DNA of 62,988 bases, filler included, from Basidiobolus ranarum (taxonomy: Eukaryota): the NCBI GenBank assembly GCA_040143965.1. It is 7 parts of 7 records of this genome, joined end to end, with 100 filler letters (N's around TTAATTAATTAA, not from the genome) between each part and the next. Parts side by side here need not be neighbours in the genome. Positions count along the whole stretch, not along the records: positions 45,106 to 54,002 come from JASJQH010000905.1; 6 more parts are not named here. One strand, written 5' to 3'. Both the position numbers and the translations under genes were made by a program. The notes under the pieces were generated by a model. The model saw nothing but the letters and a program-made list of their open reading frames with translations, was not told where the DNA came from and ran no database searches. How positions within the stretch are numbered: position 1 is the stretch's first letter; each line of letters starts with the position of its first letter. Below are positions 261-62,988 of this stretch, one piece after another.

Positions 261-269
261 TAAAATTGG

Positions 270-3490: not shown

Positions 3491-3599
3491 TCAGTACCAA
3501 CATTCAATGGTGTCAGCTTGAAAACCACTATAAGTACTGGGAATCTATTGGGGAGGGCTTCACTTTGAAATATGTAAGAAAGCAGAATCACTCAATTCT

Positions 3600-5905: not shown

Positions 5906-5949
5906 AATTGAATCAGAAATAGCCCTGATTACTATTTCAACGAGTACCA

Positions 5950-8850: not shown

Positions 8851-8931
8851 AGATTCTATCGATAAGCACACGCTGCTGCATTAATAACAGACAGATCAAA
8901 CCAGTCCAGCAGCAATTCATCAGGATCATAT

Positions 8932-9031
8932 NNNNNNNNNNNNNNNNNNNNNNNNNNNNNNNNNNNNNNNNNNNNTTAATTAATTAANNNNNNNNNNNNN
9001 NNNNNNNNNNNNNNNNNNNNNNNNNNNNNNN
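8932..9031. other. Artificial contig linker (N44-TTAATTAATTAA-N44)
   Basis: Identical 100-bp spacer with stop codons in all six frames. It recurs at 17955-18054, 26975-27074, 35991-36090, 45006-45105 and 54003-54102. Confidence 0.97.
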
Positions 9032-17954: not shown

Positions 17955-18054
17955 NNNNNNNNNNNNNNNNNNNNNNNNNNNNNNNNNNNNNNNNNNNNTT
18001 AATTAATTAANNNNNNNNNNNNNNNNNNNNNNNNNNNNNNNNNNNNNNNNNNNN

Positions 18055-26974: not shown

Positions 26975-27074
26975 NNNNNNNNNNNNNNNNNNNNNNNNNN
27001 NNNNNNNNNNNNNNNNNNTTAATTAATTAANNNNNNNNNNNNNNNNNNNNNNNNNNNNNNNNNNNNNNNNNNNN

Positions 27075-29928: not shown

Positions 29929-31622
29929 ATGGCATTGATTTTACCACCTGAAGTGTTACAACACATTATTGGTTATTTATCCGAACCAAAGGATTTATTG
30001 AGTTGCTGTTTAGTTTGTTCTACATGGTGTAAAACTGGGCAAAGCCACCTATGGAATGCTCCAGTATTATCCCGAATAATATCAACCAAAGACCACAACA
30101 CTTTCGAATCGTTTTTCCAAACCACCAAGAGTAAGTCTTTACTCTTCTAATTAGTAGTTACTACATTCGATTCTGACATAAACTTCGTGTAGACTCTGTA
30201 TCTTTGTTAATACAGAAGATCGAAACGTCTTATTGTCCATTTGAAAACCTTGATAAGATTCTCTCGTGGATCTTACGACTTCAAAGCTTACGTGTATTGA
30301 AACTTCCGGTGGGATATCTTACATGTTCACGGATATCCAACGAATCGTTTGCTTTTCAAAACCTACGTCTGCTAGAGCACCTTTCAATTGAACAAACGGA
30401 CGCAGGGACACGCCTTCTCTATCAACTGATTGCGAAATGCCCTCTACTTGAGGACATAAGTATACAATTAGAAGCAAGCCATGTCTCAAATAGCACTTTA
30501 TTAGATGTGTCACCCAAGTATATACCTGTGGCCAAACGGTTGCAACGACTAAAAATTATGGAGGAATTTAGACTCAAACCGGGGGGAAGATTAAAGAGCG
30601 AATTTTTAGAAGCAGTTATACTGGCAACACCTTGTGTTCAAAGATTCACGATAGTTTCTTACACTATTCCCAATGGATTCGCAACAATACTGAATGAGAG
30701 ATGCCCCAACCTGACTCATTTCAAAATGCAAAATATACATGTGTATGGCGGTCCGTCTCTGAACCGAAAACTTTCGGAAACTTGTGAAGCAATAGCACTT
30801 CACTTCAGCACACAAATGATAGAAATGGAATTGGATTTCAGAAGAGCACACTCAAACAATTCAGTGGTTATGCTGCCAAATACCTGGTATGAACATTCGT
30901 GGACCTATCTGACTAGCTTAAAGCTATCAGGAATTCAAATAAATCAGCAACAGATGATTGCTTTATCCCAGAGTTTGACCGGAGATATGGAGGTACTTGA
31001 GATCAATTTACCAACCACCGAAACCCACCCTTTACAGTTCTCAAGAAATGAACTGAATCTTCACGCATGGCTAAGCTTATTTACTAAATGTGGGGGAACG
31101 TTGACTTCGGTAACAGTTGGTGCCGACTACCTACCTAATAGATTTGTTGAGATACTAAGTAAGCATTGTAACAAGCTGAAGCATCTCAAACTCGAGTCAC
31201 ACACGGTCGACGACTATTCAGTTTATGATATAGTTAGATATCTGGGCAAATCTCTGAATTCGCTACACATTCAAAGCGTGAATTTAGGAACAAAAACCTT
31301 TCACTTGGTTGCCAGGAAGTGCGTGAAATTAGAGCAGTTGAATCTGAGTAGAACCATTGATATACCGAGTCATCAGCCTTACTACTATTCTGATGAAAGT
31401 CGGGTTCAACCATATATGGAGACATCGGTTACCAGTCAATTCTTACAAAGTTTAACGAGATTAAGTTTAGTTAATTGGAGACTTGGAGTGGAATTTTTCC
31501 AGATTCTAAGCAATTTGAAGAATTCTAAGCTGTCGCAGGTCCGTGTATCTGAACCAGTGGATAACTGCTTCCCATTGGCTACTTTAAGAAGCAAATTTCC
31601 AGAATTCAATATAGTGGAATAG
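29929..31622 (+). CDS. F-box protein with an RNI-like leucine-rich-repeat region (intron 30131-30192)
   Basis: LPPEVLQHIIGYL...LLSCCLVCSTW F-box. The in-frame GT-AG intron joins it to the 472-aa ORF carrying CPxLxxLxL repeats. Confidence 0.88.
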
Positions 31623-32016
31623 TGTACTTGACTTTTCTGATCCAAATCACAATATATGGTTATCTCTGAAATAAACAAACAATCCAATGAAAAATTAATG
31701 TACGGGATAGGCAACATGCATATATTTGAGAAATTAAGGGTTCCATGAAGATTCGATAACATTCTTCATGATTCTTTTTAGCTTACACAAGAAGTCTATC
31801 TCAATATTTACATCAATAAGCTGAATGACGCGTCATCTCTCCTAAGCCAATGATATACTAGACAAATAAGAGAGTTGTTCACAGATTCTCACTTTTTTCC
31901 CTACAATTCGAGGGTGCATTGTTTTTTTTTCCATTCGAAAGATTGAACTCAATATAAAAATAATGCAGATCCCTATTGGGTGACTCAATCAGTCTTTACT
32001 TCAGGCTTCTTTCAAC

Positions 32017-32511
32017 ATGTCCAACCCCCGTGTCTACTTCGATCTTGCTGCTGACGGTCAACCTATTGGCCGTGTCGTCATGGAACTTCGTGCCGATGTT
32101 GTCCCTAAGACTGCCGAGAACTTCCGTGCTCTCTGCACTGGTGAGAAGGGTTACGGTTATGCCGGCAGCATCTTCCATCGTGTTATTCCCCAATTCATGT
32201 GCCAAGGTGGTGACTTCACTCGTCACAACGGTACCGGTGGTAAGTCCATCTATGGTGAAAGATTCCCTGATGAGAACTTCACCTTGAAGCACACTGGCGC
32301 TGGTATCCTCTCCATGGCCAACGCTGGACCCAACACCAACGGATCCCAATTCTTCATCTGTACCGAGAAGACCTCTTGGTTAGATGGTAAGCACGTCGTT
32401 TTCGGTTCCGTCGTTGAAGGTCTCGATGTCATCAGAGCTGTTGAGAAGTTCGGTACCTCCACTGGTAGAACTCTCAAGAAGATCACCATTGAGGCCTGTG
32501 GACAATTGTAA
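32017..32511 (+). CDS. CPR1: Cyclophilin A (peptidyl-prolyl isomerase), intronless, strong codon bias
   Basis: [60 protein letters not shown]. Confidence 0.98.
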
Positions 32512-35990: not shown

Positions 35991-36090
35991 NNNNNNNNNN
36001 NNNNNNNNNNNNNNNNNNNNNNNNNNNNNNNNNNTTAATTAATTAANNNNNNNNNNNNNNNNNNNNNNNNNNNNNNNNNNNNNNNNNNNN

Positions 36091-39000
36091 GTGGGTTTGT
36101 TACAGGAGAAGAAATAGACCCAAAGAGACTACCAGAAGCTATCCTTGCCTTTCACAAGAAGCAGAGGAAAGCACTCTCTACACTTTGTCTACATCTCTTA
36201 GTCTCTCAATTGAGACACACACACTGAGCCAAGAATGTCCAGACTGCTTGGGAAACACTTGAGAGACTATATGAGACTAAATGGCTGATAGGCAATATCT
36301 TAGGCAAAATTATTTTCAATATAGTTGAATACTGATGATTCTATGGCTAATTGTATAAATTGGATAAAAGCCATGCCAGATCAGCTCTCATCCAATGAAG
36401 CACCTCTGATCAAAGATGACTAAGTTATGACACTACTTGGGAGCCTGCCAGATAAATTTGGGAACCTCACAATTGCCCAAGAATCATGGTCAGAATCTTT
36501 GACAATGGAATATGTTATTGCTTGGCTGTTAAATGAGGAATTAAGGAGATCTAATTATCAACAAAATCAAGCAGATCAGACATTTTTTGGAACTGTAAAA
36601 TGCCCAACAGGCATTAATAATGGTGCCTCTAATAGGAAATTATTTTCTGTGAGTATTGCAAGAAATCACATCATTCAATCAAAGATTACAGAAAAAGGAT
36701 TTTTGCAAAAAGCTAAAATTTGAACAAGCAATTCAAGTAAACACCAATAGGGATCATCTATTTGCATCTGCCCTATCATTAACTACTAATGAAGACTCAG
36801 AAATGTGGTCCATTGATTCTGGAGCCTGCCAGCATATTTCAAACAAGAAACATTGTTTTTTCTAGCTGAAAGCCCATACAAACAAGGAAAGTCTGCTTAA
36901 GTGATGACTATGCGCTAGATATAGTTGGTAAGGGCACAGTCGTGCTCAATTTACACTAAATTTCAGCTATGCCATCTGCACAATTGGAAGCTTTACTTTA
37001 CATGGCAAATATAGCAAAGAATCTACTCTCAATGAGCTAAGCAACAATTCAAAGACTAAGTGCTGAGTTTAGCAAGGCAGGATGCACTGTCACAGAACAG
37101 AAAAATGCAAAATTAGCTACTGGGATAGAAACTCAAAGCCCTTAAAAGCTAGATATCAACAAATTGCAATCAGAGCATGCAAGCTTGGCCAGAACCAGTG
37201 AAATAAGCTGTCAAACATGGCATAGAAGATTAAGCCATGTTGGGGAACAATAACTGACCCAATTATTAAAATCAGCTGATTTCAGGCAAAGAAATTAAAA
37301 ATAGATCTGAGAGAAGGTTGCATATATGGAAAACATTACAGACAACTGTTTTCAAGCTCTGACAAGATCAAAGCCACTAAGCATTTTGCCCTGATCTATT
37401 TGGACCTATGTAGGCACATGAAAAACATCTCACAAGGTGCCAAAATGCACTCTATGACCTTCATTGATGAAAAAACAAGTTATACTTTGGTACTCTTTGT
37501 CAAATCAAAGTCTCAAGCCTTGGCTATGCTTAAGCACTACAAAGCAATGGTGGAGAGAGAATCAGCACAAAAAACAAGGGTATTAACAAGTGAATATGGT
37601 GGAGAATACTGCTCCAAAGACTTTGCTAGAATCTGTTCTAAACACAGAATTGAGCAACATGCTATCACACTGTATACTCCTCAGCAACATGAAGTTGCAG
37701 AAGGTGCTAATAGGACCATGGTGGAGATAGTAAGATCAATGTTACATGATCATATTTTAGATTACCAATATTGGGCTGAATCTGTCTCTACCGCAGTCTA
37801 TATCAAAAAAAGATGCCAAAAAAGATTGCTTAGATATTCTACTTCATTTAGAGCCCTATATGGATCAAAATTAAGTGTGAATCATCTCATGATCTTTGGT
37901 TGCACAGCATATTGCCTAATTCTAGCTCAAAAATACTTTCAATTGAAACCCAAGAGCAGTAAATGTTATTTCTTCATTACTATGATAGATCTAAGGCCTA
38001 AAGACTGTTTGATACCACAAATTGGAAGTTAATTGAGTGCACAAATGTGATTTTTGATGAAAGAGCAACTTTTTCACCTTAAATCTCAGTTCTTGATCCA
38101 GAAAGTACAAGCAGCACTCTTCAGAAAGTGTCTGACACAGCTCCAATTGTATCTGAGCTCGATTCAACCAAATTTCCTGCTCCAAGCACATCTGAGGATG
38201 ATTTAAGACCTGGAAGATCATCTTGAAGGAGATATTAGCTAGCAAACTAGTGGAACACTTCTATTGATGATGTATATGCTTATGCAGCAATCTGTGCCAA
38301 GCCACAGACTCTAGATCAAGCATGGCAGTGTCTAGAATCACAATTATGGAAAAGAGCCATGTCTGATATGTTTTCTACACTACGGGACAATACTATGTAG
38401 GTTTCAGGTCCTTTACCATCAGGGAAGAAGCCATTAGTTTGCAAATGGGTCTACAAAGCTAAAGACTGACATGATGGAACCATCAATTGGCACAGAGCAT
38501 GATTAGTTGCAAAATGTTGTTCCCATACTCCAGTGGTTGGTTTTGATGTAACTCTTGTCCAGTTTAGCTCCATTAGATCAAACCTGGCACTCTAAGCCTT
38601 CCATAACCTTTGTGCACATTTAATAGATGTAAAAACAGCCTTTCTAAATGGAATTCTAGTACAAGAGATCTATATTGAATAACCAGATGGTTTGTTGCTC
38701 TAAAAGACCCTATTATGGTCTGTATACTGCAAAAATTGATAAATGGACTCAAGCAAGCACCCAGGGTATGGTCCAACATATCAGATACTTATTTGGAATC
38801 ACTGGAATTCCAAAAATGCAGAGCAGATCACTATATTTTCATCAAAACAACTGGAAATAAGATCCTTATCTTGATGCTATATGTGGATGACTTGATTATA
38901 GCCTCAATGATCTAGAGGCACTTAACCGGACAAAATCCAGCTTATCAAGCCAATTTAAGTTGATCAATATTGGTTGATCAAGTTATTTTCTTGGAATCTA

Positions 39001-40243
39001 ATCAAAAGAGACAAGCCCAATCAGAAGCTCATGCTTCATCAGTCCAGATATATCTGAGACATCCTAAAATGCTTCAACACAAAGAATAGTAAGCCTGTAA
39101 CATTACCAATGGATCCCAATGTGAAATAATTCAATATCATCCAATTAGGCCCCAAATGACTCAAATCAAAGCCAGGAGTTCCCTTATCAATCAACAGTGG
39201 GTAGTTTAATGTGTACAATGGTGGGAACACATCCAGACATTGCTGTGGCAGTGGGAACTCTGAGCCAATTTCTCAAAAATCTAGGATCTGAGCACAAAAC
39301 TACAACAAATATTTTGTTATCAAGGGGGAACTTTAGATCTAGTTCTAGAATACTCTGGCACCCCCGGTGGACAAGATTTAGAAGGCTACAGTGATGCAGA
39401 ATGGTGAAAAAACCTTGATGCTAGGAGATCAACAACTGGGCACATTTTTCTCCATGGTATTGGAGCCATAATTGGAATAACAAGAACCAACTAACCATAT
39501 CTCTTTCCACTACAGAAGCAGAGTATATGGCTGCCTGTGCTATTACACAAGAGGCTATGTAGTCAAGAAAGTTATTTTCTGACTTAGGATACATGCAACA
39601 ACATGCTATGCCTGTATTTGAAGATAATCACAGTTGTATTTTATTAGCTGAAAATCCTATGTTTCATGCTAACACAAAATATATAAATGTTAGGCATCAT
39701 TTTGTAGGAGAAGCAATAGAGAATGATATAGTTATCCTAGTCTATTGCCCTACTTAAGAAATGATTGCTGACATCTGAACCAAGCCTTTAGCTATAGCAC
39801 AATGTGAGTTATCAAGATATAAGTTAGGTTTAGGAGAAATGTGAAATAATTAGTAAGTTTGAATGTTGGAATTAGGTAAATAGCAACTCAATATCTAGTA
39901 GTTAGTTTATACATGTTCTGATGGTTTAACATACAACTCTGTCATTCAAAAACAAGTGTTTATTGCTCTAGTTAATAAAAATATCAATTAGCTCACTTTT
40001 ATCAATGTTCCCTGTTTTCTCACAACTTCTCCAAATCATCTCAAATTTTCACTCATGCTTAACAGACATGTTTGTTGTGATCTGCGCACATCTGATAGTT
40101 CTATTTGATAGTAAACTATCAATAGGACATATTCAATCTAATAAAACTGAGGTGTCTAATTCATAAATCCCAATCATGTCCAAAATACTTCCAAATCCAA
40201 ATCATGTCCAAAAGACTTCCAAATCCCCTGAACACTTTTATCA
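36091..40243 (+). mobile_element. Near full-length degenerate family A Ty1/copia element (gag-PR-IN-RT-RH plus 3' LTR 39864-40243)
   Basis: MTLLGSLPDKF (gag), WSIDSGACQHI (protease), integrase ORF 37400..38032, LYVDDL (RT), GYSDA (RNase H). Copia domain order; many stops. Confidence 0.93.
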
Positions 40244-40559
40244 GCTTCTGGGTGTTAAATCCCATCACAGCCAGTATGCTATCATCATTGGCATCTGCCC
40301 TTTAAGTAAGCTTTCATTATTCAACAGTATTAGCTAGAGGCAGAGTCTCCTATTAAGAGTTTTACAATATCTGTTCAGCAACTCTCTACTACTAATGGCT
40401 CAGATCTGCAGCTCAAAGTTGGACAAGAATAAATCACAAAAGAAAGGAACAGAAATTGAATTATTTGGCAAGATACTTGATAGCATCAAGATTTCAGCAT
40501 ATTGTAGAAGTTCTTTAATGAGAAACCACTAGCCTAGGCATGTAATTAAATAAAAAAAC

Positions 40560-42250
40560 TCATGGAATTTTACTTATACATTAAAGTAAACATCTAACAC
40601 ATTGCTTATAGTAGTGTTTACAGGTTTTAACATTGTTTGAGTGCAAAAGCTGCAAAACAGGCATTTTATTCCAATTTTTACCAATGTAGAAAGCTGGGAC
40701 TTATACTGCTTTCTTGCAGATCAAAGAAGATACTTGTTTTAAACAAGAAAGAATCACATGATACCACTATAAGAGAAAATCAGCACTACATACTTGTGGA
40801 CACCTCTAAATCAGGAAATCACTCCTCTGTTTTATGAAATCTGGATTCTGGTGTAAGAGATTGCATGAGTTACAATAGAAACATAATCTATGACTACTAG
40901 GAAATAGAGCTCCTACATATCACAATAGCCAGAAAACAAACTGGCTGCATATGGAATAGAAAAGTTGACACTTGACTTACAAATAAGTAAATCCAAGAAT
41001 GACATGGTAATCTTTGATGATCTCTTATATACCTTCACTTCCTTCAAACCTATTTTCTATTGAAGCAATTAAAATAGTATTACAATACCAATTCAGCCAA
41101 GGATATGCAACCCACACAAGTCAAGGGACAAAATAGCGGCAATTGGAATATGAATTGGGAGTCTATATCACCTGGATATTGCACTAACAACTGAGACTGC
41201 TTCTATTTTGCAACAACTTCTTCCAGAAGCCCAAGATTTGGCATCAATGTTAAGTTCATCTAAGCTTTAACAGTGTCAAATAATTAAACAGGCTAACCCT
41301 GGCCTATGTGCAGAACCAGATCTTAAGACCTCAGCCATTATCACTTGTGAAAGCTGTATATAAGAATATACCAGCATAATACTATTTGTCATACCATGTG
41401 TTAGCAGAGCAACAAATGTGTTGGATCTCTAACATACAGACTCACATAGCCAATTGCAAACTCCATCACCAACCAAGTAATGATATTTACTCATTTTTAT
41501 TGATCACAAATCCTATTGACAGTGACACATCTTCAGTTGAGCAAATGAGAGATGTTTCATTAACTCAGGGTATATGAAGCAACAGGCATAACCAAAATAA
41601 AAAGAGAGTCAAATACCAATAGAGAAATAGTGGAACTGAATTTAACTATGAGTCCATGACTAGCTTTTGTTGAGGAAAGATAACTCAGCAACAATATACT
41701 TTCTACATAGTGCAGCAAAAAATGGAATTGCAGAAAGGATGCATAGAACTATTGTGCAGAAAGCAAATATCATGCTGATTGAATCCAATCTGCTTAAAGT
41801 CTTTTTGGGTGATGAAACTTTAACAGCCACATGGCTTCAAAATAAATATCCAACATGTTGTAAGTATGACTCTCAAACTCCTATTGAAATTTGGAGTGGA
41901 AACAAGTCTAATCTGAATCATCCAAGGATACTTGAGTTAATAATGTGTACTCATATTCCTAAGTTAAACATAGAAAATTGAACAAAAAAGCAGCTAAGTG
42001 TATTCTATGGGGATATCACAACTAAAGCTGCTATCTCCTAGTTGCTGGCACAAATTAAATCATCAACTCCACAGATAATATATTCATTGAAGAAAATCCC
42101 TAATATTCTGATCCAGCAAATTTAATTTTGGCTGAAGATCAATTTTGCAATAGCTCAAATTTTGAGTCAACCAGCTCTGAAACCAACTTGGAAAATATTG
42201 CATTGAACCTATATCATAGAATTAAACTAAATATGGAATCTGAAACCATC
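40560..42250 (+). mobile_element. Heavily decayed family B copia fragment (gag knuckle, protease, integrase)
   Basis: Nucleotide similarity to 8680-8830; LDSG protease remnant; NGIAERMHRTIVQKANIML...TPIEIWSG integrase. Confidence 0.8.
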
Positions 42251-43273
42251 TATCCACATTATCCAGATTTTCACAATGTAACATGTGGATCAAGGTCTTG
42301 AATATCAGCCACCAATTAATAAATTATTGATAAAACTTGAATCATTATCCATCCCTGCAGTGAGTATTCCTAGTATTATGAATTGCTTTACCATTACAGC
42401 CTAAGTATTAGTTAAGTAATGCAACATTCAATATTATGAATATAGTAGTACTAACAGTAAATCAGTATTATTTGCCAATCAGTATTACCAGCACCATCAG
42501 TCAAATTTATCTAGATATCATTCAATATTAGTCAGCCATCATATCTTGTTCCAGTAGTTATTTATGATAGGTTTTATGATAGCCTTGAGATCATATTCCA
42601 TGGGAGATCATATGATCATATCCCTTCCCTATGGGTAGGTCACATGAGCATATTGACTGTGCTATGCCAACATATTTCAGCTGATTGCTATTCTCTCTCA
42701 GGATGGCTTGACCTATTACTGTGCCACCTTATTGTGATGTAGCTAGATCCTGGTATAGTAAATAGATTGGTAATCAGCAGATGAGCCATCACACAACTGA
42801 CCTCTCAGTTTAAGTATGAATTCAGGAGTACCTCCTTCAATAAACTTCAGTCCAGTTATGGTATAAATATAAAAACTCAGTCAACCCCCAATAATTCTGA
42901 TCTACTTAGGCATTTTAATACTACCAGAAGAGCAGTAAACAATTATCCAGTCTTAAACTTCTTTACAAGTACTGAAGCCAAGCAGAACGAACTATTATTT
43001 GTTATTCTTGAATCAAGCCACTACATAAGCAGTGAAGCATCAGGCACACTGCAAATGTACAATTTACACCAGGACACCTGATAATTACTCTCAACTTTAA
43101 AATTATCATAATAGTCAGTAAATGCTGAGCTCTCATGATCCTAAATAGACCTGACTATCCACCAAGTTTGAAATGAAACATCTGGATCACTAGCATATCT
43201 ACAGCTATGAGCATAGCAAGCCAGTATATGAAAGTTCCTGCAATGGGAGATTGTGTAGCCCTAACAGAAAATT

Positions 43274-45005
43274 TGATAATTGTGTTTTGAGGTTTAGGAG
43301 TGTTTTAGACAAGATTTGGATTGGTTAATTAGACACCTCTGTTTTATTGGATTGAATATGTCCTGTTATATTTAATTTGAAATATGACTATTGGATATGT
43401 TAAGATCATAAAGAGCATGCCTGTTAAGCATGGGTGAAAATTTGAAATGATTTGGAGAAGTTTTGAGAAAATAGTGAAAATGGGTAAAAGTGATCTGATG
43501 TATATTTCTATCAATTAGTACAATAAACACATGTTGTTGAATGGGAGAATTTAATACTAAATAATCAGATTATGAATAAACTAACTACTGAATAACAAGT
43601 TACTATTTAACTAATTTTAGTATTCCCACACAACTAATTATTCACTATTGCTCATAAATCTAACTTATATTGTTATAATTCAAATTGTGCAATAGCTCAA
43701 GGTTTGCTTAAAATGTCAGCAATCATTTCCTCAGTATGGCAATCAATGAGTTCAATTATATCATTCTCTATTGCTTCTCTAATAAAATGATGCTTAATAA
43801 CTATATGCTTTGTTCTATCATCAAATGTAGGGTTTTTTGTTAATGAACTACAACTTTGCATATCTTCAAATATGGTAATAGCATGTTTTTTCATGAATTG
43901 TATGTCTGTAAGTAGCTTCCTTAACCACATAGCTTGTTGTGTAGTAGCAGAGGCTGACATTTACTCTTCTAGTATAGAGGAGAGTGTCATGATTAGTTGC
44001 TTCTTACTATTCCAAGTTATGGCTCCATCACCATAGAAAAAAGTGTACCCAGTTGATGAGCTTCTATCTTCAAGGTTTCTTCCCCAGTCTGCATCACTGT
44101 AGCCTTCAAATTTTGTGTGTCAGGGGGCCAGAGTATTCCAGAACTAGATTTACAGTTGCTATCAAATATGTGAATATTCGTTTTACTTGAGTTTTGTGCC
44201 CAGGTCTGGAATTTTTGAGATATTGGCTGGCAGTTCCCACTTTCACAGCAATATTTCAACATGTTCCAATCATTGTATACATTAAAGTACCCACCATGGA
44301 TTGATAAGGGAACTCCTGGCTTAGATTTGAGTAATTTTGGGCCAAATCTGATGGAATGGTGATTAATTTCTCATTGGGATCCATTGGTTTTGATATAGGC
44401 TTACTCTTCTCAATGTTAAAACATTTTGTATATCCAGGATTTATTTAGACTGATTCAGCATGACATACTGATTGGGTTTATCTCCCTTGATTTGGATTCT
44501 AAAAATATAACTTGATTCACCCTATTTTTCATCTAAAATTGGCTTGATAAGCTGCTTTTCATCCAGTTAAGTGCTACTAGATCAGTTGTGGCAATGATCA
44601 AGCCATCCACATATAGTGCCAAGAAAAGAATCCTACTTCTGGCTGTTTTGGTGTTAATAAAGTGAACTGCTGTGCATTTCTGAAATTCCAGTGTTTTAAA
44701 TAGGTATCTATCTTGTTGTACTATGCCCTGGATGCTTGCTTTAGACCACATAGCACTTGTGCCACTTACAGGCCATATTAGGGTGACTTGAGTCAATAAA
44801 TCCATCTGGTTGTTCCATATAGATATCTTGTTCTAGACTTCCATTCAGAAAGGATATTTTTACATCGGAGCTAAGGCTTCATCAAAAGCAACTCCTGGAC
44901 ACTGGGAATAACCTGTTGCAACTAATCTTGCTTTGTATCTTTCTATGGTTCCATCAGCTCAGGCTTTTACTTTGCAGACTCATAAGGAGCCTATAGCCTT
45001 TATTC
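43274..45005 (-). mobile_element. Family A copia 3' part: RT, RNase H and 3' LTR (43274-43622)
   Basis: LALYVDGL; QQAMWLRKLL...DRTKHIVIKHHFIRE...MIADILSKP; PPT AGTTGTGTGGGAA before the LTR. Confidence 0.9.
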
Positions 45006-47327
45006 NNNNNNNNNNNNNNNNNNNNNNNNNNNNNNNNNNNNNNNNNNNNTTAATTAATTAANNNNNNNNNNNNNNNNNNNNNNNNNNNNNNNNNNNNNNN
45101 NNNNNATTCAATTACTGTTGGGGTTAAGGCGGTGGATTCAATGTTGCTGAACTTGACGTGGATGTTGCGAATGGGAATGCCCTCATGTGCCACGGTCATA
45201 AATATGGGTCCTTTAGAGGGGCAGGAGGTTTGGAGTGCTTCAGTGGCTAAGATAGATGATTCTTCATAACGCTATGCATTCAGTGTGTTCTACTTACAGC
45301 TCAGACATGTCGATTGTATGCGATACATAGATGATTCACGACGGTGTAGTGTGGTCACCAAAGAATTTTCACCATATCAAATTGACATCATCTTGGTGTT
45401 TTGGGAGATTAAAACTAATTTATCGGTCTTCACTATTTGGTGTTATAAACACCTGACTATAATTTATAGCAATAGTTCCCAACCTCTTCTCTTCTTCAGT
45501 GTTGCAATCTTATGCCAGAAGGTGCTTGTATTGAGTTCATGGCGAAGTTTCAATGATTTGCTTAAATATGCTTAGTATTAAGGCCAAGAAGTACTAGTGG
45601 CCATTGGAGGTAGGTTCATGGAAATCCATCACTAAACCATCCGCATCTTACATGGGCCATTTTTAACTCAAAAGCATCGCTCTCATAAACCTAAACTCTT
45701 AAGCGATGGAATGTAGCTGGATTTTCTGGCATTTATTTCTGATCATTTCTCCCAAACCTGTTTTTACCATCTCTTGAAGCAGAATCCTATCTCTGAATTG
45801 AAAAGTTTTGACATAACGATAATATCTCAGTCGCATATATAACTGAAGGGAATCCAAGATCATTGGAAATCGTTTGTGCTGGAATTGGTTTCCTTTTCCT
45901 GCTACGATTATCGTCCTTGAACGTAGAGCTTAAAATGAGTCATTTTCAAGAGGGCAGAGATCACGACAAACCACCTGATATATTGACGGGTTCAGTTGTT
46001 ATTATGGAATAAACTTGTTTGTTGTCATTTTCTAAGCTCTACTATCCGAGCAAGAAATTGAGTCTATAAGCGAATATTAAGACGAAGACTGTTGATTTGA
46101 GGTTCTTTATGGTTTCAAGATGTGAAAGTGCCACTTGATACAACAAGAGTGAGGTAAAAATAACCTTACCAAATTTGGTACCTTGAGATCTTGAGGTCTA
46201 ATACCAGGTTAACAGAGTTCATTCATGTGTGCTCTAGTTTATATGAAATGTCTGAGTACACTCAAGAGTGTAGCAGCCTAACTGATAATAATATAATTGG
46301 TGATAGAGTGGTTGCTGTACAAAATTCAGTGTTAGTGTAGGCAAGCTAGGTTCACATGAAATCTCCGGTTGTATTCTGATTGGCCAAAAACAACTAACCA
46401 TATCCATCGATTTTGAGGCTTAGCCTGAGTAAAGCTTCGTGACACAGTATTCAAAGGAGTCTTGTTGTATACCATTCAAACGGGCTATTCTCATTTCACG
46501 CAAGTCAATATGCTCGATTGTTCTGCGTATATAATGGTGACAATTTAGGACTAGGTGTTAGTGTAATTTTCGTTTGCATTGGATATGAGTATTCAAATAT
46601 CTATTTCGAGTGAATTAGTATAGTTATGTGATGTTACACCTCAATATGGAGCAGTATAACTGAAGGTTGGCTAATGTTTGTCAATCAACACATATTATCT
46701 AAATGGGTTTTACTACATGTCTATTATATAAGACTAATGTAGCAAAAGCCAGATATCTAGAGATCCACAGGGGTAATCTATTTGCAACGTAAGCAAACCA
46801 CTTGGCTTGTAACATATATATCCTTCATTTGTTAAATGATAATCTTTCTGTACAAAGTCTGTCACTTGATTAGAAGCAATTTGCTTGCGCATGTTTATTG
46901 CTGTAAAGTCAGTAAGATTGTATGAGCACCATCCGAGTAGAACCGGTTTAGTCAAGGTGAAGCGAGTGGCAACATATATTAACCTATCCGGTATTAGGGT
47001 ATAAATATCTCCTGAATACAGTTTTAAAGAATTCCCTCTCACATAAATCTTCGATAATCTTCTTCAGCGTGTCTTTGGCACTTTAGTGAGAGAAACCTTC
47101 TTCTACGCCAACGCGTGTTCTCTAATATTAAATAAGAAGCTTCTTAAACCAGCTGAATTCACTCTCTTGCACTCATAATTATTACGGAAATCTTCCTATC
47201 AAACTCTTTAAACATAGAAAATAGACTAAAGCTTCCATAATTATCTTATTTGTCTCTTTTCTAATACGTATATCCACATCACTTTTCAGTCTTCCCTTAT
47301 TATTTCCCGCATCGAATTTTTAAGCTC

Positions 47328-47951
47328 ATGTTTAGGTCTGTTAATGATTCCGTCTATTCAAATACACCTAATACATATACTCTATTTGGTGGGCCAGGTG
47401 TGTTCATACCCAGTAACAATGCCTTTGACGTTCGAGCCATTTGGTGGAATGCTAAGGTTCCATCTCTATCTCATACTAGAACGAATTCCAGTAGCTCTAC
47501 ATTATCAAACCTTAGTAATACCGTAGGGGCTTCCACATCAGAACATCAAATACTCTCTCCCTCTCTTCATGAGTGTAATAACACTTCTGCTGGAGCCAAT
47601 GTGAATATCAAAAATATTTTACTATACAAGACGGAGCTCTGTCAAACATTCCAGGAGGTAGGAGAGTGTCGGTATGGAGTGAAATGCCAATTTGCTCATG
47701 GGTTACATCAATTACGTCGAATCCATAAGCATCCAAAGCACAAAACTAAAATGTGTCGCACTTTTTGGGAGCTTGGAAGATGTCCATACGGTAAACGTTG
47801 TTGCTTTATTCATCATGGAACAGCAATACCAGCTGAAATAGGAAGAGTCTCGCCAGAAGGTTTTCAAATCCCCTTTGAAGCTACGGATAAATACTTTCCT
47901 ATTACACAAGTCATGCCAAACCATTCCTACGGCCAATATATGTCCCATTGA
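47328..47951 (+). CDS. Tandem CCCH zinc-finger mRNA-decay protein (TIS11/tristetraprolin/Zfs1 family), intronless
   Basis: YKTELC-x8-C-x5-C-x3-H and HKTKMC-x8-C-x5-C-x3-H with canonical spacing. Confidence 0.93.
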
Positions 47952-50060
47952 TTTCTTTCGTGACCTGGAAGGTAATAGCCCTTTGGAGCTTTATCACTGA
48001 CGCTTACTCAAGCCTCTTGTATCATGTTGTATAGAACATTTCTTTTTACCATATTTCTCTTTCTCTCACCAAGATCGAAAACCCTATATCATCATTCTAT
48101 TAACTGTGAAGCAAACCACTATAACACAATGGGCCCTCACATTTATAAACAAGCCTACTTAAACTTACGTATTTAAGCATATTTGATATAATTAATTAAC
48201 TAGGGGCTACCAGCCTATTATCTAATATATTTGGAAGGCTCTTGGCTATAATAAAATAATCGCTAACTTAGGGAATGCGACCCTTAGTTAAACTTATCAG
48301 GTTTTGTTATGGGTGACTGATGATTTCTAGCCTGAAGGGTGCTACCATTAGCCATAAAGTGGAAATGCTAGATAATATTAGGCCTTCAGGAGCTTTATTG
48401 AAGTATATAATGTAAGCGCATCGAGCTTTGCGTGCTGAGATATTTCTGCAAAGTATATGTGCTGTGCATAAACCGACCCAAATGTGACTGTATTTGTGAA
48501 GCAAGCCATTCCTACTTCTTGCGGACGAGCAATTAAATCAACTCTTCAAGAGTATGATTGCCCACACCTCCTCCAGTATCCATATGGAGATTAGAAAAAA
48601 TGGCTCACAAGTCCTCAGCCGTCGTGTACCAGAACTTATACTATATTAATATATAGATATGTGGTACAAAACAATGTTTTTAAATGGTCACACCTTGGTT
48701 GAAAGAGATTTACAGAGATTGATGTCTAGTATATCTAAAAACGATGTCATCGGTTATCTTATACTAGAACCAGCTGCACTCGATGAGCGAGTATCAAATT
48801 CTTGAAGCAGTGAGAATGTTCAGTGCTTAAATCTTGACCACCCAAGAATAGGGGCAGTACAGGTCTGGCCAGTTAACGCTAAGTTTCTCAATCCCTCCTT
48901 GGCAATGTCCGGCCTGGAAAATGTGTCTCTATCGGCTCTAGGATTTCCATATTACCAATGTATGTACAAATGAAGAAATCAGTTACATTGCTTTACCCAT
49001 GTTCTTGCAATAGTCTAAACATCGATAAGTTTGTCAAGCAACTCTTAGGTAGAGCTGGGTTTGTGGTATACTACATTCTTATTGTATGGCTGTACTAAGT
49101 CCCATACGCTTCGTATTGATGCGACATGAGAATTAGGCAGATACATATTCATGTTTTTTGTTGTGCATTGCAATCGCTTATTTACTGAACGTATCACCAG
49201 CTGAAATTGTTGAAATATTAATCAAGCACCTACATATTGGTACATTATATTTAATATATTTCGTTTCTATTAATGGAATCTCAAAATCATACCATTACAT
49301 ACCGAATCAGGAGAGTTCACATTTTAATAATATACCAATATATTTTGAATTGCATTCTATTATTTGAAAACTTTGTGGCTAATTAAAAGAGCTGGCCTTC
49401 TGAAACCAACTTTGTAGAAATGTTACCATACTTCAAGCCCATTTCATAGCTTCACCAATATGACAGATATTGTATCAACTTGATATATCATTGAACTCCA
49501 TACAGTAACTGTTAGTGGAGGAGGAAAGCACTATGGATGAGCATTCTTTATAAGCGACTCATTTTAACATGTTTGGATATGAGCTATAACTTTACAATAA
49601 TAATAACTGAATGATACACACCTGTATATACATCAATCAGAACATATGGTGAACGTGCATTCAGATGGCTCTGTACATATCCTGTGGAAAGGGATTCATT
49701 ATAGAAACCTGTGCAGGATTTCAAGTACCAATGCCAATGCAAGCCGTTCTGGTAGTACAACAACTGATAAGAGTGACTTGTGGCATAACCAATTTACTGA
49801 TCCACGTGACTCCACATTAATCACTGTGTATTATGACCAGGGTGATCAAGCACTAAGGTCAACATCGATTTTTTGCTAATATTTGGGTTTGGGGGTTCGT
49901 TCTTCTGAACTTCTTAAATAGGTAGTTGACAAGTAATTTGGAAGACTTCAAATTGTTACTGTTTCAACTTCACCTACTCCTGTGCTTACCCTTGTATTCT
50001 TTAGGCTTTATTTATTAATTTTCTGGCCATTTTTCTTATAACCAAAGGATCAAGCTAGAA

Positions 50061-52493
50061 ATGACCACCGTTTTAATTGGTAATTACGATAGTTTCACCT
50101 GGAACGTGTACCAATCTTTACGTGAAGCTGGCGCTAACGTTGTTATGTTCCGTAATGATAAAACTACCGTTGAGCATATAGCCTCTTTGAAACCAAAGAA
50201 TTTGGTTATTTCACCTGGACCTGGACATCCTTCAGAGGATGTTGGCATTTCGAAAGACCTAATTCAGCATTTTTCTGGAAAAATACCCATTCTAGGTATA
50301 TGTCTTGGTGAGCTATGTATACTTCAAATATTTGGTGGTCAGGCCACTCTTACAAGAGAGATTGTACATGGAAAGGTATCCAGAGTAAAGCACGATGGTA
50401 AAGGGTTCTATCATGGAGTTCCTCAAGATATAGCTATCACTTGGTATCATGCACTTGCCGGAGATCCTACCTTTGTACCAAACGAACTCATTGTAACCAG
50501 TCGTACTGATAGTGGGATTATCATGGGAGTCAGACATCAAAAGTATTGCATTGAAGGGATTCTATATCATCCAGAAAGTATTCTTAGCGAACATGGCTCA
50601 ATTTTAATCCAGAACTTCCTGAATTGTCGAGGTGGAACTTGGGAAGAAAACTCTGAATCAACAATGATCCCAACCACTGAACCTACTCTATTGGTAGATA
50701 ACAATAGTGAAAAGAGGGTTCAAATTATCTTTGAAAAAATTCATATACAACGACTTGCAGATATCGCTGAAGCTAAAGCTACTCCAGGTCGTTCAGAAAC
50801 GCAACTTCAAAGACTCCTTGAATTAGGAATTGCCCCATCACAAATTGATTTTGTATCTAGACTACGTCAAGAGTATAGGAAGCCTGCAATCATAGCTGAG
50901 ATCAAGCGTGCATCACCGAGTAAAGGGGATATCAATGTTGACGCGATTGCAGCAGAACACGCTTTGATTTACGCGGAAGCGGGTGCTTCAGTTATTTCAG
51001 TATTAACCGAATCCAAATGGTTCAAAGGATCTCTGCAAGATTTACGCCAAGCCCGAGAAAGTGTATCTAAACTTTCAAATCGACCAGCTATTCTTCGAAA
51101 AGACCTCATCCTTGATTCGTATCAAATTATGGAAGCACGTTTAGAAGGAGCAGATACAGTATTACTCATCGTGGCTATGTTGGAAGAAGATGAAATTCAG
51201 AATCTCATGAAATATTCCAGATCCTTAGGTATGGAGCCTTTGGTGGAGGTTAATAACGTCACGGAAATGAAAAAAGCCCTTGCATTTGGTGCCAAAGTCA
51301 TCGGTGTGAACAATCGAAATCTGCGTATGTTCGATATTGATATGGATAACAAAAGTAGGTTAGTTGAGATGGTACCAGAAGATGTCATTCTTACCGCACT
51401 GAGTGGCATTACCGGCCCACAAGATGTGAGCAAATATATGGAGCAAGGAGTCGGTGCAGTTTTAATCAGTGAAGCTCTGATGAGATCTCCAGATAAAAAG
51501 AAATTCATTCATAGTTTGATCCAGTCAGAGGTAACCACACCAAACACCCAACAATCCACTCCCTTGGTCAAAATTTGTGACGTACGCACAGTTGAAGCAG
51601 TGGAGACAAAACAACAACAGGGCGGAAGTAGTGTGACATTTGATTGGAATATAGCGCAAACATTCCTAAAAGACTCTGTAAATTCGCAAAGAGATCAATT
51701 TCCTATACTCTTGGCCAGTGGAATAACTTCAGAAAATGAAAGCCAGGTTCGCCCTTGGGCAGTAGAGGAGTCAAATGGAATAGAAACCGAAATCAACCCG
51801 AGGGTACAAATTAGGGATGGAAAAATAGTGAAATATGGCCATAATGTAACTCTAGAAGAAGCTCGAACAATTAAGTTTATCAAGGAACACACCAGCATCC
51901 CTGTTCCTGAAATATATGATTACTATACGGACAATGGGAGTAATTATATTGTGATGGAATATATCGAAGGAACCTCATTAGAAAACAAGCTGACAAACAA
52001 AGAACTGGACGAAGTGGATATAGATAACATATGTTTGCAACTGAGAGAATATGTTAATCAATTACGCAATATAAAAGGCAATTATATTGGTACGATCTCT
52101 AAAACATCAATCAGCGATGTAATGTTTGGAGTAATTGGTCCATATGAGAACGAAAAAGCTTTAAATGCACATATTCTAGAAGGTGTAGCACAGACACTAA
52201 AGAATTACTATGCCGATTTTCTCAGAAGCATGTTTATTTCGAAAGGCGAGAGTTCGTTCTACTTAACACATGGCGACCTAACTCCCCGGAACATCATAAT
52301 CGGCGAAAACAACAAAATTATTGGTATAATAGATTGGGAAGGTTCAGGATATTTACCTGAGTACTGGGAATATGCGAGATCAAGAATTGGAGTGTCGTGG
52401 AATGATATATGGTTTTCAAAAATAGAGAAGTTTATTGATCCCCATCACTATGAAAATATGCTGTTTAATATGGTGATGAAGGCATACTTTTAA
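50061..52493 (+). CDS. trpC: Fusion protein: anthranilate synthase component II (TrpG) + indole-3-glycerol-phosphate synthase (TrpC) + truncated PRA isomerase (TrpF) remnant + APH/choline-kinase-like phosphotransferase
   Basis: NYDSFTWN, SPGPGHP, GICLG, HPES (about 50061-50640). AEIKRASPSKG, SVLTE, LRKD, LVEV, GVNNRNL (about 50720-51520). LVKIC...GGSS..FDW...NGIET (about 51561-51791). VKYG, IPVPEIY, MEYIEG, HGDLTPRN, IIDWE, YLPEYWE (about 51792-52493). One uninterrupted 810-aa ORF. Confidence 0.92.
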   Translation: MTTVLIGNYDSFTWNVYQSLREAGANVVMFRNDKTTVEHIASLKPKNLVISPGPGHPSEDVGISKDLIQHFSGKIPILGICLGELCILQIFGGQATLTREIVHGKVSRVKHDGKGFYHGVPQDIAITWYHALAGDPTFVPNELIVTSRTDSGIIMGVRHQKYCIEGILYHPESILSEHGSILIQNFLNCRGGTWEENSESTMIPTTEPTLLVDNNSEKRVQIIFEKIHIQRLADIAEAKATPGRSETQLQRLLELGIAPSQIDFVSRLRQEYRKPAIIAEIKRASPSKGDINVDAIAAEHALIYAEAGASVISVLTESKWFKGSLQDLRQARESVSKLSNRPAILRKDLILDSYQIMEARLEGADTVLLIVAMLEEDEIQNLMKYSRSLGMEPLVEVNNVTEMKKALAFGAKVIGVNNRNLRMFDIDMDNKSRLVEMVPEDVILTALSGITGPQDVSKYMEQGVGAVLISEALMRSPDKKKFIHSLIQSEVTTPNTQQSTPLVKICDVRTVEAVETKQQQGGSSVTFDWNIAQTFLKDSVNSQRDQFPILLASGITSENESQVRPWAVEESNGIETEINPRVQIRDGKIVKYGHNVTLEEARTIKFIKEHTSIPVPEIYDYYTDNGSNYIVMEYIEGTSLENKLTNKELDEVDIDNICLQLREYVNQLRNIKGNYIGTISKTSISDVMFGVIGPYENEKALNAHILEGVAQTLKNYYADFLRSMFISKGESSFYLTHGDLTPRNIIIGENNKIIGIIDWEGSGYLPEYWEYARSRIGVSWNDIWFSKIEKFIDPHHYENMLFNMVMKAYF

Positions 52494-52497
52494 CAAA

Positions 52498-52856
52498 TAG
52501 GGCGGGATGAAAAGCACCTAGTGGTGTGAACTTTATTTAGCCTATGTACTAATTTAAATAAAGTGGTAATTAAGACATCAATCTCTTAAGATATTGTGAC
52601 AATACTCAATCATATCCATACTTAACTTGATGACCAATGTAAGCAAGTTCTGAGGATGTAAACATAGTGTTCAGGAGCAAAGGTGGAATGCAGAAAGGAA
52701 GGTACTAAGTACAAACTAAATGGATAATAGGACAAAAACCTGGAATAACAGGGATCACGAAAGGTGTCTTGGAGGCAAGGTATTGCTTCCAAAGGTCTAG
52801 CTGGAAGTCTATAGCAACAATTCTAGGCAGTTTTGTTTCATGCAGTTGTAAAGCTA
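52498..52856 (-). mobile_element. 5'-truncated 3' end of a non-LTR (LINE-like) retrotransposon
   Basis: Diverged direct copy of about 53245-53602 (ALQLHETK.P.IVAIDFQLDLWKQYLASKTPF plus 3' UTR with AATAAA). Confidence 0.75.
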
Positions 52857-53244
52857 CCCTAACAAAAATAAAATCAATTTGATCTGGATTGGATCCACCC
52901 TCCAAAATAGCAAAACTGTCAGAGAACTGTCACAATATTGGTGGCTTGCATTCTGCCAGGGACTTTAATGGTGTAATGGTGGTTTCTTGATAGTATTTTG
53001 ATGGCATTCATACATGTTAAAATATTGATCCTCAAATTTGGCATGCGTTATTCAATATCCAGCAATTTTTGCAAAAAAATAATTTTCAAATGGCAAATTA
53101 CTGGGTTTACTGCTGTAGGAATTTGAATTATTATGCATGCCTTTATTTGGATATTTTAGGCATTGTATTCCAGCCATAATGAGAATCAAAAAATACAAGA
53201 ATCTTGTTGTGTTTAGTCTCTACATATACACATACTTGACTGAT

Positions 53245-54002
53245 TAGGGGGGATGAAAAGCACCAGATGGTGTGGACTTTATTTAGCTTGAATACTAATC
53301 TAAACAAAGTGACAATCAAGACATCCATTTTTTAAGATATTGTGACAATACTGGATCATATCCATACTTAACCTGATGACCAAGGTGATCAAGCTCAGAG
53401 GATGTAAATATAGTGTTAAGGGGCAAAGATGATAAGCAGAAAGGAAGGTACTTAGTACAAACCAGATGGACAATAGGACAAAAACGTGGAATAATCAGAA
53501 TTAAGAAAGGTGTCTTGGAGGCAAGGTATTGCTTCCAAAGGTCTAGCTGGAAGTCTATAGCAACAATTTTAGGCTGTTTTGTTTCATGCAGCTGTAAAGC
53601 TAACTCAGAAACCAAAGGATCATCTTGTATCAATTTCCAGCATGATGGTGCATTTGAAGATGGTGTGGATAGCCACTTCTTAATCAGTGGATTTCTGCAG
53701 TCATTTGGTTGGCATAGAAATCTTGCCCTGAGTAAAACTACTCTAATATGATATGGGAAGAATCCAAAAGTTCCATTCAGAGCATGATCATAGGGAGTCT
53801 CAGGCAAGTCAGGCATCAGCAGCCTGAGGCAGTAGCTGATGAATCTATCAAGCTTAGAGTAGTCTCTTTGGTTGAGTGGGAGTAGATGTACTCCATATTC
53901 CAGAACTGGTATCACAAACTGCTTGAGAAGTCTTTGACAGCCATGATAAGATGTATTAGGGGGTGTAACAGCAAGCAACTTGTGAACAGCCTGTTTGGCC
54001 AA
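53245..54002 (-). mobile_element. Non-LTR retrotransposon ORF2 C-terminal region and 3' end, cut by the contig end
   Basis: ORF 53316..54002 contains LLKQFVIPVLEYG...KLDRFISYCLR, resembling the post-RT thumb motif of LINE ORF2. CpG-depleted and duplicated nearby. Confidence 0.7.
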
Positions 54003-54165
54003 NNNNNNNNNNNNNNNNNNNNNNNNNNNNNNNNNNNNNNNNNNNNTTAATTAATTAANNNNNNNNNNNNNNNNNNNNNNNNNNNNNNNNNNNNNNNNNN
54101 NNTAATAAGAGGGTATAGATGTTCGAAGTACAAATTCACAGTCCATGAACTGTTTAGAGTATATA

Positions 54166-56475: not shown

Positions 56476-57411
56476 ATGTTAGGACAAACTGGTAACCTTA
56501 ACATCCGCACACCTCCATTTGTGCTAAATCTTTACAAGTAAATCTCTTTTCTTTTCTATTTTTACCCTTCCCAGCCTTCGCATGATCTATCATTTTTCCT
56601 AAGGTGTTTGCTTGCTAACTTGCTTCATCTTCTAGAATACTTTCAGAGAAAAGTTACTCTGATATGATAGCTTGGGAGCGATCAGGCACCAGATTTATCA
56701 TTAAAGACCCAATCAACTTCGCTTCTAAAGTGCTTCCTCAATACTATATGACCAACAAATTGGCTTCATTCTCCCGTCAATTAAACGTAAGCCTCAATGG
56801 TCGGTGTTGCTGTTAATGTGATGGCTTATTAATCTTTCGGATAGATTTATGGCTTCTACCGAGTTTCTGACCGACGAAGGAATAGTCAATGCAGCGATAC
56901 ATCCATGATAATCTATGTTCATCAACATTTCAAGCGGGACAAACTAGATTCTCTTCATCTCATCAAACGTATGGCGAGTTCATATCCTCGTGCAACTTTC
57001 AGACTTTCAAAACTTCAGGTACATGGCTCAAAGTCAAAGTCCGTTCCTTCGACCATTTCACCAATATCCACTTCATCCTTGAACTCCCTTGCGACATGCC
57101 AACATGAATGTGGAGTAAAATGCGCTGCAGTAGCAGCCCATGCCTGTATGAATTGCAAGATACTTACTCAGGAGATAGTGAATCTGAATAGAACGATTGA
57201 GTATTATAAGTCTATTGTACACGAACCATCAATACTAGATGAAATGAATTATACCAATTATCAAGATTTTTGCTCACCAGATATGTCACTATCCCTATAC
57301 TCGACCAACGCTTTACCTTTCTCATTAGAAAAGGTTACTTCCGATGAAAATACTTATTCCAGTTTCAATCTGAATCATTGCTCACAACTCGTTGATAATA
57401 TTGAAATGTGA
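56476..57411 (+). CDS. HSF-type DNA-binding protein, paralog 1 (exons 56476-56537, 56636-56786, 56845-57411)
   Basis: PFVLNLYKIL...IAWERSGTRFII...FASKVLPQYYMTNKLASFSRQLNIYGFYRV...HQHFKRDKLDSLHLIKR; TATATAA at about 56433. Confidence 0.9.
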
Positions 57412-62499: not shown

Positions 62500-62988
62500 C
62501 TAGAAAGTGATGATTTCGGATTCTTCATATTTCATTGTCTTCAGATTGGGTATGCATGCTTTCTCGATCATAGCTGGCGGTCCACACAATAATACTATGG
62601 ATTTGCCAGATGATGGCTTGGGAAGGTTCTTGCAGCACATATCGCAATTAATGAAACCAACTGAGTAATTCCAGTCACTTGGTGCTTTCTGATCCACAGT
62701 GTACCATACTTTAAATTGGTCAGGATTTTGCTCGGCAAGCTGGTCCAATTCCTCACGTAGTAAAATATCGTCTGGTGTAACATTAGCAAAGATTAATGAT
62801 AGCTTAGTATGATCCTCAGAGTTACCAAGTACTGACTTGATGACCTGTAAACATGGAGTGATTCCACTACCACCTGCTACCATACCAATGTTATCAACCT
62901 CTCCGTTAACTTTACCATTGTTGAGGTTGTAGCGACCACAACCTTCATAAACGAAATGACCAACAGGTCCCTTCATTTCAACGGTATC
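62500..62988 (-). CDS. C-terminal FAD/NADH-binding domain of a cytochrome-b5-reductase or assimilatory nitrate-reductase family protein (5'-truncated)
   Basis: KGPVGH, MVAGGSGITP, FANVTPDDILLREEL, WYTVD, CGPPAMI and terminal F. Confidence 0.9.
   Translation of the reverse strand, partial: DTVEMKGPVGHFVYEGCGRYNLNNGKVNGEVDNIGMVAGGSGITPCLQVIKSVLGNSEDHTKLSLIFANVTPDDILLREELDQLAEQNPDQFKVWYTVDQKAPSDWNYSVGFINCDMCCKNLPKPSSGKSIVLLCGPPAMIEKACIPNLKTMKYEESEIITF

Follow-up and report, generated by a model that had tools for sequence, protein, structure and literature searches.

A candidate chimeric gene of Basidiobolus ranarum joins a relaxed duplicate of a trifunctional tryptophan gene to a complete APH-fold kinase domain

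What does a gene encode if its frame opens with enzymes of tryptophan biosynthesis and closes with a small-molecule kinase? This question is raised by an open reading frame (ORF) of Basidiobolus ranarum that lies on the plus strand at 50061..52493 of the window, i.e., the whole stretch of 62,988 nucleotides (nt) from assembly GCA_040143965.1 that we analyzed, within the part taken from record JASJQH010000905.1. The original prediction had read this locus as a rewired tryptophan pathway and offered three options, i.e., (a) a pathway towards a phosphorylated anthranilate- or indole-derived product, (b) a bypass of TrpF by re-phosphorylation or (c) a recently formed chimeric gene whose only relevant part is the kinase. 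We consider it highly probable that the gene is a duplicate-derived chimera with a dead TrpF and relaxed TrpG and TrpC parts, and not a rewired pathway. As to how it came to persist, we lean towards option (c), i.e., a young, lineage-specific chimera kept open for its kinase.

The chimeric ORF is a single ATG-to-stop frame of 810 amino acids (aa) plus the stop codon and the longest frame of the window (824 codons from stop to stop; runner-up 481). Its domains follow each other in the order GATase, IGPS, TrpF remnant and APH-fold kinase, all on the plus strand. The TrpG-type class-I glutamine amidotransferase domain spans aa 4–187 (50070..50621; Pfam PF00117, 8.2e-43) and the indole-3-glycerol-phosphate synthase (TrpC) domain aa 225–486 (50733..51518; PF00218, 3e-87), the latter covering positions 2–254 of the 254 in the profile. 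About 77 aa (aa 500–576; 51558..51791) were recognized as a remnant of TrpF (PRAI) by homology to the normal copy, and the PRAI profile PF00697 had no Pfam match in the 810-aa protein. The C-terminus is formed by a complete APH-fold small-molecule kinase domain of about 234 aa (aa 577–810; 51789..52490), with PF01636 matching at aa 598–772 (5.8e-14; 52.9 bits, cut-off 23.2). In a full-length AlphaFold2 model, calculated from a mixed alignment of 33 of 119 relatives of the tryptophan part (TRP) and 30 of 114 kinase relatives, GATase, IGPS and kinase were confident. The continuous 810-aa frame and the domain series described earlier, there with a kinase of about 233 aa, were both recovered.

We compared the tryptophan part with the best 120 of 4692 matches at E ≤ 0.001, i.e., the chimeric protein and 119 others. 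The nearest TRP relatives were all from Basidiobolus, namely a B. ranarum protein of 741 aa with 84% identity, a B. meristosporus protein with 77% and a second B. ranarum copy with 74%. GATase, IGPS and PRAI occurred together in all 119 other relatives listed of the 4692, and PF01636 occurred in none of these 119. In a tree of ten rows, hand-picked from the 120 listed proteins, the chimeric protein was sister to a normal B. ranarum copy (P0002; support 100/98), and a Basidiobolus clade enclosed both (100/99). These relationships make the N-terminal 576 aa a paralogue of the trifunctional TrpG-TrpC-TrpF protein of fungi. We take N. crassa trp-1 and A. nidulans trpC to be named genes of this trifunctional kind. 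In C. cinerea, according to PMC7552465, trp2 encodes a single trifunctional enzyme that combines GATase, PRAI and IGPS. The first 576 aa of the chimera are colinear with the fungal protein and keep its domain order and its TrpG and TrpC catalytic residues. In contrast to that protein, TrpF is reduced to 77 unfoldable residues, a kinase replaces the C-terminus, and eight TrpG-TrpC columns that are invariant in the 119 relatives have been replaced on a branch evolving 13–19 times faster.

Compared with the sister copy, the TrpF remnant has kept the first 14 aa, lacks the following 144 aa and continues with 63 aa from the last third of the barrel that carry an extra 4-aa deletion, ending 19 aa short of the normal C-terminus; it also shows a G507D replacement and is predicted to be disordered. 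The scar of the 144-aa deletion lies at 51600..51626 on the plus strand, where 27 nt can be aligned to both flanks of the deleted stretch; the deletion thus joined two short similar peptides. Residues 493–511, 520–536 and 538–579 had predicted local distance difference test (pLDDT) values below 50 and contained no strands in the full-length model. The TrpF of the chimera cannot work. A large internal TrpF deletion survived by the frame had been proposed before, and alignment to the nearest normal copy bears it out, since the 144 aa are missing in frame.

The fusion junction was located by tblastn at 51780..51791 (plus strand), with kinase homology starting at 51780 and TrpF homology reaching 51791. 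The two homologies abut without filler DNA and overlap by 12 nt. Against its stand-alone relatives the kinase misses only the Met and about 3–4 residues at its start, i.e., the join lies at codon 4–5. The nearest in-frame Met upstream of the kinase is M474 and the first one within it is M632. As there is no Met between these two, the kinase is translatable only within the long frame.

We analyzed constraint on the tryptophan part with an alignment of the 120 listed TRP proteins over aa 1–500. Of 99 columns that do not vary among the 119 others, the chimera deviated at 8, and of 151 columns conserved to at least 97% it deviated at 14; for the other proteins the median on these column sets was 0, with maxima of 4 and 9, respectively. 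Invariant or near-invariant positions were replaced in TrpG (D7G, Q85L, R128W, S131A, Q168L) and in IGPS (F349L, H422R, G470S), and for most of them conservation extends to bacterial PabA/TrpG and to the IGPS of M. tuberculosis. Q85 and S131 are presumably glutamine-binding positions and G470 presumably part of the phosphate-binding loop. When differences from the sister were polarized with two further Basidiobolus copies (488 columns of aa 1–500), 53 changes fell on the chimera branch, 4 on that of the sister and 12 remained ambiguous; maximum-likelihood end branches were 0.17 for the chimera and 0.009 for the sister. TrpG-TrpC has hence evolved 13–19 times faster in the chimera than in the sister copy.

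Sorted by conservation class, with invariant columns first, the 53 changes hit 8 of 99, 9 of 102, 12 of 95, 12 of 102 and 12 of 102 columns, i.e., a flat distribution. As a control under normal selection we used the intact paralogue P0004, which has a branch of similar length. Unique changes at columns conserved to at least 90% made up 17 of 46 in the chimera and 3 of 29 in P0004 (Fisher p = 0.015; chi-square over five classes, p = 0.07). From this pattern of replacements, the TrpG-TrpC part appears to evolve almost without constraint. A flat spread over invariant and variable columns on such a fast branch speaks against the headline of the original prediction, i.e., a rewired tryptophan pathway, and against its options (a) and (b). 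RIP-like hypermutation (RIP, repeat-induced point mutation) was rejected as a cause of the fast branch, because the changes at conserved sites, as read from codon tables, imply both transitions and transversions, in both directions.

The kinase domain, in contrast to TrpF, is complete. The β-3 lysine K591, IPVP, MEYIEG, HGDLxxxN (737–744) and DWE (758–760) were all located in the sequence, so that the intact motifs listed in the original prediction were all found in place. The columns of K591, H737, D739, N744 and D758 are each conserved in 100–114 of 114 relatives, and all catalytic columns conserved in at least 80% of these relatives are intact; the six deviations at columns of this conservation are mostly common to the small clade to which the kinase belongs. 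Aligned end to end, aa 577–810 share 57, 56 and 48% identity with stand-alone proteins of 228–233 aa and 68% with a 179-aa fragment. These four nearest relatives (P0123, P0121, P0122 and P0124) are unnamed proteins; P0121–P0124 lie on short contigs, and two of them are unusually rich in Asn and Lys. The 114 kinase matches included no named Basidiobolus protein. The next tier (25–39% identity) consists of proteins called 'aminoglycoside phosphotransferase' or 'kinase-like' from Aspergillus, Xylariales and other Ascomycota, and Atlas clusters of such fungal kinases matched the domain at 0.98.

An AlphaFold2 model of the kinase alone, from an alignment of 72 of the 114 relatives, reached a pLDDT of 92.5 and a predicted template modelling score (pTM) of 0.89. 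The best profile match in the PDB was 3ham (1.9e-9), and the best folds in Foldseek were APH(3')-IIIa and APH(2'')-Ia (1j7l, 5iqg) with probability 1.00, TMq 0.58–0.66 and identities of 12–18%. The fructosamine-3-kinase profile PF03881 stayed below its cut-off (13.2 against 22.4 bits; E = 0.053) and covered 45 residues only. No entry for PsiK or methylthioribose kinase was found in the 60 listed of 98 PDB matches or in the Foldseek rows shown, and there was no direct comparison with PsiK. From its sequence relatives, the kinase is most likely an ordinary ATP-dependent small-molecule phosphotransferase of a large uncharacterised fungal APH-domain family, and nothing ties it to tryptophan.

With the stand-alone fungal APH-domain (PF01636) kinases it shares the Lys, HGDxxxxN and DWE motifs and, for the nearest four, 48–68% identity; unlike them, it lacks its own start codon and forms the C-terminus of a 92-kDa fusion. 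The bacterial APH(2'') and APH(3') enzymes are its best solved relatives by sequence profile and by fold, and in AAC(6')-Ie/APH(2'')-Ia an APH domain likewise stands at the C-terminus of a fusion. They differ in that identity is 12–18% only and the substrate-binding part is not comparable, with no hint of an aminoglycoside substrate or of resistance.

Is this combination of domains found elsewhere? When the kinase part was searched against proteins of 445–1418 aa in about 5.8 billion protein clusters, only the chimera itself and one unrelated Xylariaceae protein of 577 aa were returned. The chimeric protein is a singleton cluster, with one member from one contig (45106–54002). An exhaustive HMMER search with aa 487–810 gave 3787 matches, of which the best 150 cover the kinase only. 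The ten longest of these 150 (434–717 aa) contain no GATase, IGPS or PRAI, and one contains Meth_synt_2. The latter, P0251 (717 aa), is a distant member of the kinase family with an N-terminal domain resembling cobalamin-independent methionine synthase (PF01717, 5.7e-9); fusions of APH-family kinases to metabolic-enzyme domains thus occur elsewhere. A description of a TrpG-TrpC-kinase architecture was not found in the literature searched, supplements not covered. That the architecture was not known to have been described, as noted at first, agrees with these cluster, HMMER and literature searches.

How did the chimera arise, and why is its frame open? The alignments show that a duplicate of the trifunctional TrpG-TrpC-TrpF gene has been shortened by 144 internal aa of TrpF and by its last 19 codons, and that it is fused in frame to codon 4–5 of a complete small APH-family kinase gene. 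We propose that the tryptophan part no longer acts in tryptophan synthesis, a job that a normal paralogue of the B. ranarum kind would do, and that it survives because it provides the kinase with a promoter, a start codon and a translated N-terminal leader. As the kinase lacks a start of its own, a stop codon or frameshift upstream would abolish it. Dependence of the kinase on the upstream frame would account for an open frame in which the residues themselves are free to drift.

We simulated neutral evolution by random mutation of today's sequence in 2000 replicates, with kappa set to 2 and a GC-to-AT bias of 1.5, calibrated to the observed 10.9–13.3% amino-acid change, i.e., about 0.05–0.067 substitutions per site. 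The simulated TRP part acquired 3.2–4.8 premature stops on average and remained without a stop in 3.6–1.3% of replicates for codons 1–500 and in 2.1–0.5% for codons 1–576. Moreover, each of the four length changes on the chimera lineage, i.e., +3 aa, −144 aa, −4 aa and the junction, is divisible by three, for which our own arithmetic gives (1/3)^4, about 1.2%, if the frame were not selected. The stop-free frame and the in-frame length changes favour selection for an open frame. Changes on the branch of the kinase itself fell on none of 24 columns conserved to at least 90% and on 1 of 10, 3 of 31 and 16 of 110 columns in the less conserved classes, a distribution that, at small numbers, weakly suggests the usual pattern of purifying selection. 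Whether selection for the kinase has kept the chimeric frame open is, on this sequence evidence, an even call. Option (c) fits the observations best, although on the sequence it cannot be told apart from a plain pseudogene.

The 3' flank of the gene differs from the gene itself. The CpG observed-to-expected ratio (o/e) reaches 0.76 across the ORF and 0.57 across the 5' flank but drops to 0.08 (4 CpGs) over the 1.5 kb after the stop codon, with the switch at the stop codon and a TpG+CpA excess of 1.36 in the 1.5-kb 3' flank. As CpGs were kept in the ORF and lost downstream, the gene was spared the fate of the neighbouring repeat, and the CpG retention claimed for the gene against adjacent DNA was confirmed by these values. 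The first copy of a 359-nt direct repeat (52498..52856; strand not assigned), which is CpG-depleted, starts 5 nt after the stop codon. A second copy together with a 228-aa minus-strand frame that reaches the contig end occupies 53245..54002, where the repeat part (53245–53602) is 87% identical to the first copy. The 228-aa frame matched no Pfam family; in the Atlas its nearest clusters were unnamed multi-member ones (0.95–0.96), and the nearest with a family, zf-RVT (0.86), is no more than a lead. To us the frame resembles the C-terminal part of a non-LTR (long terminal repeat) reverse transcriptase ORF. The 3' flank is a probable retroelement remnant, and its composition suggests that the element was methylated and decayed. 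What had been called adjacent LINE (long interspersed nuclear element) DNA is hence a repeated, CpG-depleted element; the LINE type itself was not substantiated, given the lack of a Pfam family and zf-RVT as a mere lead.

Several points weigh against a functional chimera that is maintained for its kinase and has a tryptophan part free to drift. By our own arithmetic, a flat rate would leave all 24 conserved kinase columns unchanged with a probability of about 0.06, which makes the 0 of 24 a weak argument, and the kinase branch, with 68% identity to the nearest relative, is probably mostly older than the fusion. The TrpG triad Cys81/His170/Glu172 and the IGPS residues E280, K282, K347, E396, N418 and S448 are still present, so that residual or altered TrpG/TrpC activity is possible. 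The rate of change is slightly lower in invariant columns (8%) than in variable ones (about 12%), and some constraint on TrpG-TrpC may remain. The simulation starts from the present sequence, assumes a mutation model and takes the fast branch as neutral. The gene was picked for its open frame, which is an ascertainment bias. With the repeat 5 nt past the stop codon, the native 3' untranslated region of the kinase has been replaced, and an AATAAA was found about 65 nt 3' of the stop codon. The Basidiobolus genome is reported to measure at least 350 Mb and to hold extra gene copies (PMC3281927); in a genome so large and rich in duplicates, lucky open relics are conceivable.

The main rival to a chimera maintained for its kinase is a plain pseudogene, i.e., a non-functional relic of a TRP duplicate and a neighbouring kinase gene, hit by deletions in a repeat-rich region and still open through recency and luck. 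It would account for the flat, near-neutral replacements in TrpG-TrpC, for the destroyed TrpF, for the repeat element immediately beyond the stop and for a singleton fusion without orthologue; moreover, the locus was chosen for its open frame, and a genome of this kind (PMC3281927) offers many chances for such a relic. However, the simulated probability of 0.5–3.6% for a frame without stops, the four length changes all in frame, the intact kinase motifs with no change in the most conserved columns and the CpGs kept in the ORF and lost in the flank all stand against it. We regard a relic as unlikely, although it deserves to be taken seriously.

In the second alternative, i.e., options (a) and (b) of the original prediction, a working TrpG-TrpC would be coupled to the kinase and yield a phosphorylated anthranilate- or indole-derived product or bypass TrpF by re-phosphorylation. 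The retained TrpG Cys/His/Glu and IGPS catalytic residues, the strong Pfam scores and confident folds of both domains, the maintained frame and the unique architecture agree with it. Set against this are the eight replaced columns that are invariant in 119 relatives, plus near-invariant ones, and among D7, Q85, R128, S131 and Q168 of TrpG and F349 and G470 of IGPS several are conserved from bacteria to fungi. The replacements are flat and do not cluster at a few specificity sites. Moreover, TrpG depends on a TrpE partner, the members of the kinase family stand alone and are not known to be linked to tryptophan, and no orthologue of the fusion was found in other genomes among the protein clusters searched. 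We hence consider such a coupling very improbable. The same low standing applies to its most specific form, a bifunctional enzyme in which a TrpG-TrpC with remodelled, altered substrate pockets makes an anthranilate- or indole-glycerol-type intermediate that the fused kinase phosphorylates or re-activates; were it true after all, Basidiobolus would have a new specialised metabolite of the tryptophan branch or a TrpF-independent route.

Least credible is an assembly chimera, in which part of a TRP pseudogene and a kinase gene unrelated to it would have been linked by a short-read assembler: the contig of only 8897 nt from a fragmented assembly and a junction seen in one member and one contig, with no independent record, would allow it, but the homologies overlap by only 12 nt without a shared repeat at the junction, and the join is exactly in frame, at kinase residue 4–5, with the whole domain preserved.

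Two routes of origin that involve transposable elements were considered as well. Capture of the gene by a transposon was rejected, as no repeats bracket it; the only repeat on the contig is the downstream pair, and there were no matches to the other six contigs. A LINE-mediated retrocopy is conceivable but unsupported, as no poly(A) or A-run follows the stop codon and the flanking element is oriented opposite to the gene.

Young chimeric genes that combine a duplicate with a neighbouring gene are reportedly exemplified by the jingwei type of Drosophila. There, as proposed here, the duplicate supplies the 5' part and the regulatory context, and one part is freed from its old function. The Basidiobolus case differs in that the 5' donor is a large multi-enzyme gene with domains that are still recognizable, and in that the chimera is known from sequence alone. 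If its frame is truly maintained for the kinase, this would be a new gene caught early in its formation, in which the duplicate of a housekeeping multi-enzyme gene lends its promoter, start codon and translated leader to an enzyme unrelated to it, with domains of its own that decay yet can still be recognized. It would then offer a clean and datable example of chimeric gene origin in an early-diverging fungus whose genome is very large and rich in duplicates. Our knowledge of tryptophan biosynthesis is unchanged by the chimeric gene. For annotation it calls for caution, since homology would label the protein 'anthranilate synthase / IGP synthase' despite the loss of at least one third of this function.

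The window consists of seven contigs of 8886–8931 nt each, concatenated via N44-TTAATTAATTAA-N44 linkers at 8932–9031, 17955–18054, 26975–27074, 35991–36090, 45006–45105 and 54003–54102; contig adjacency across each linker is artificial. As the contigs were joined in this way, the real neighbourhood of the chimeric gene is only 45106–54002 (8897 nt), which holds a CCCH zinc-finger ORF upstream, the chimeric gene and the repeated element downstream. The tandem CCCH zinc-finger ORF (47265–47951, plus strand; PF00642, 6.5e-16) is the sole recognizable neighbour on this contig. The remaining scanned ORFs (3578–4969, 30177–32511, 37280–38032, 56845–57411 and 62500–62988) were rejected as gene context because they lie on other contigs, and so was an RVT_2 fragment at 44536–44832 on another contig. 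A tblastn search of the whole window with the normal TRP protein and the four kinase relatives found no further TRP or kinase copy and no deleted TrpF piece.

Ordinary genes unrelated to the fusion were found at 30177–32511 and 62500–62988, i.e., an ORF containing leucine-rich repeats, a cyclophilin (PF00160, 7.3e-49) and a ferric-reductase-type NAD-binding fragment. The gene-bearing contigs of the window have a CpG o/e of 0.53–0.69. The contigs at 1–8931 and 36091–45005, with a CpG o/e of 0.06 and 0.04, respectively, carry Copia-type fragments (gag_pre-integrase, rve, SH3_retrovirus, RVT_2). CpG depletion thus seems to be strong and selective in the transposons of the Basidiobolus ranarum genome.

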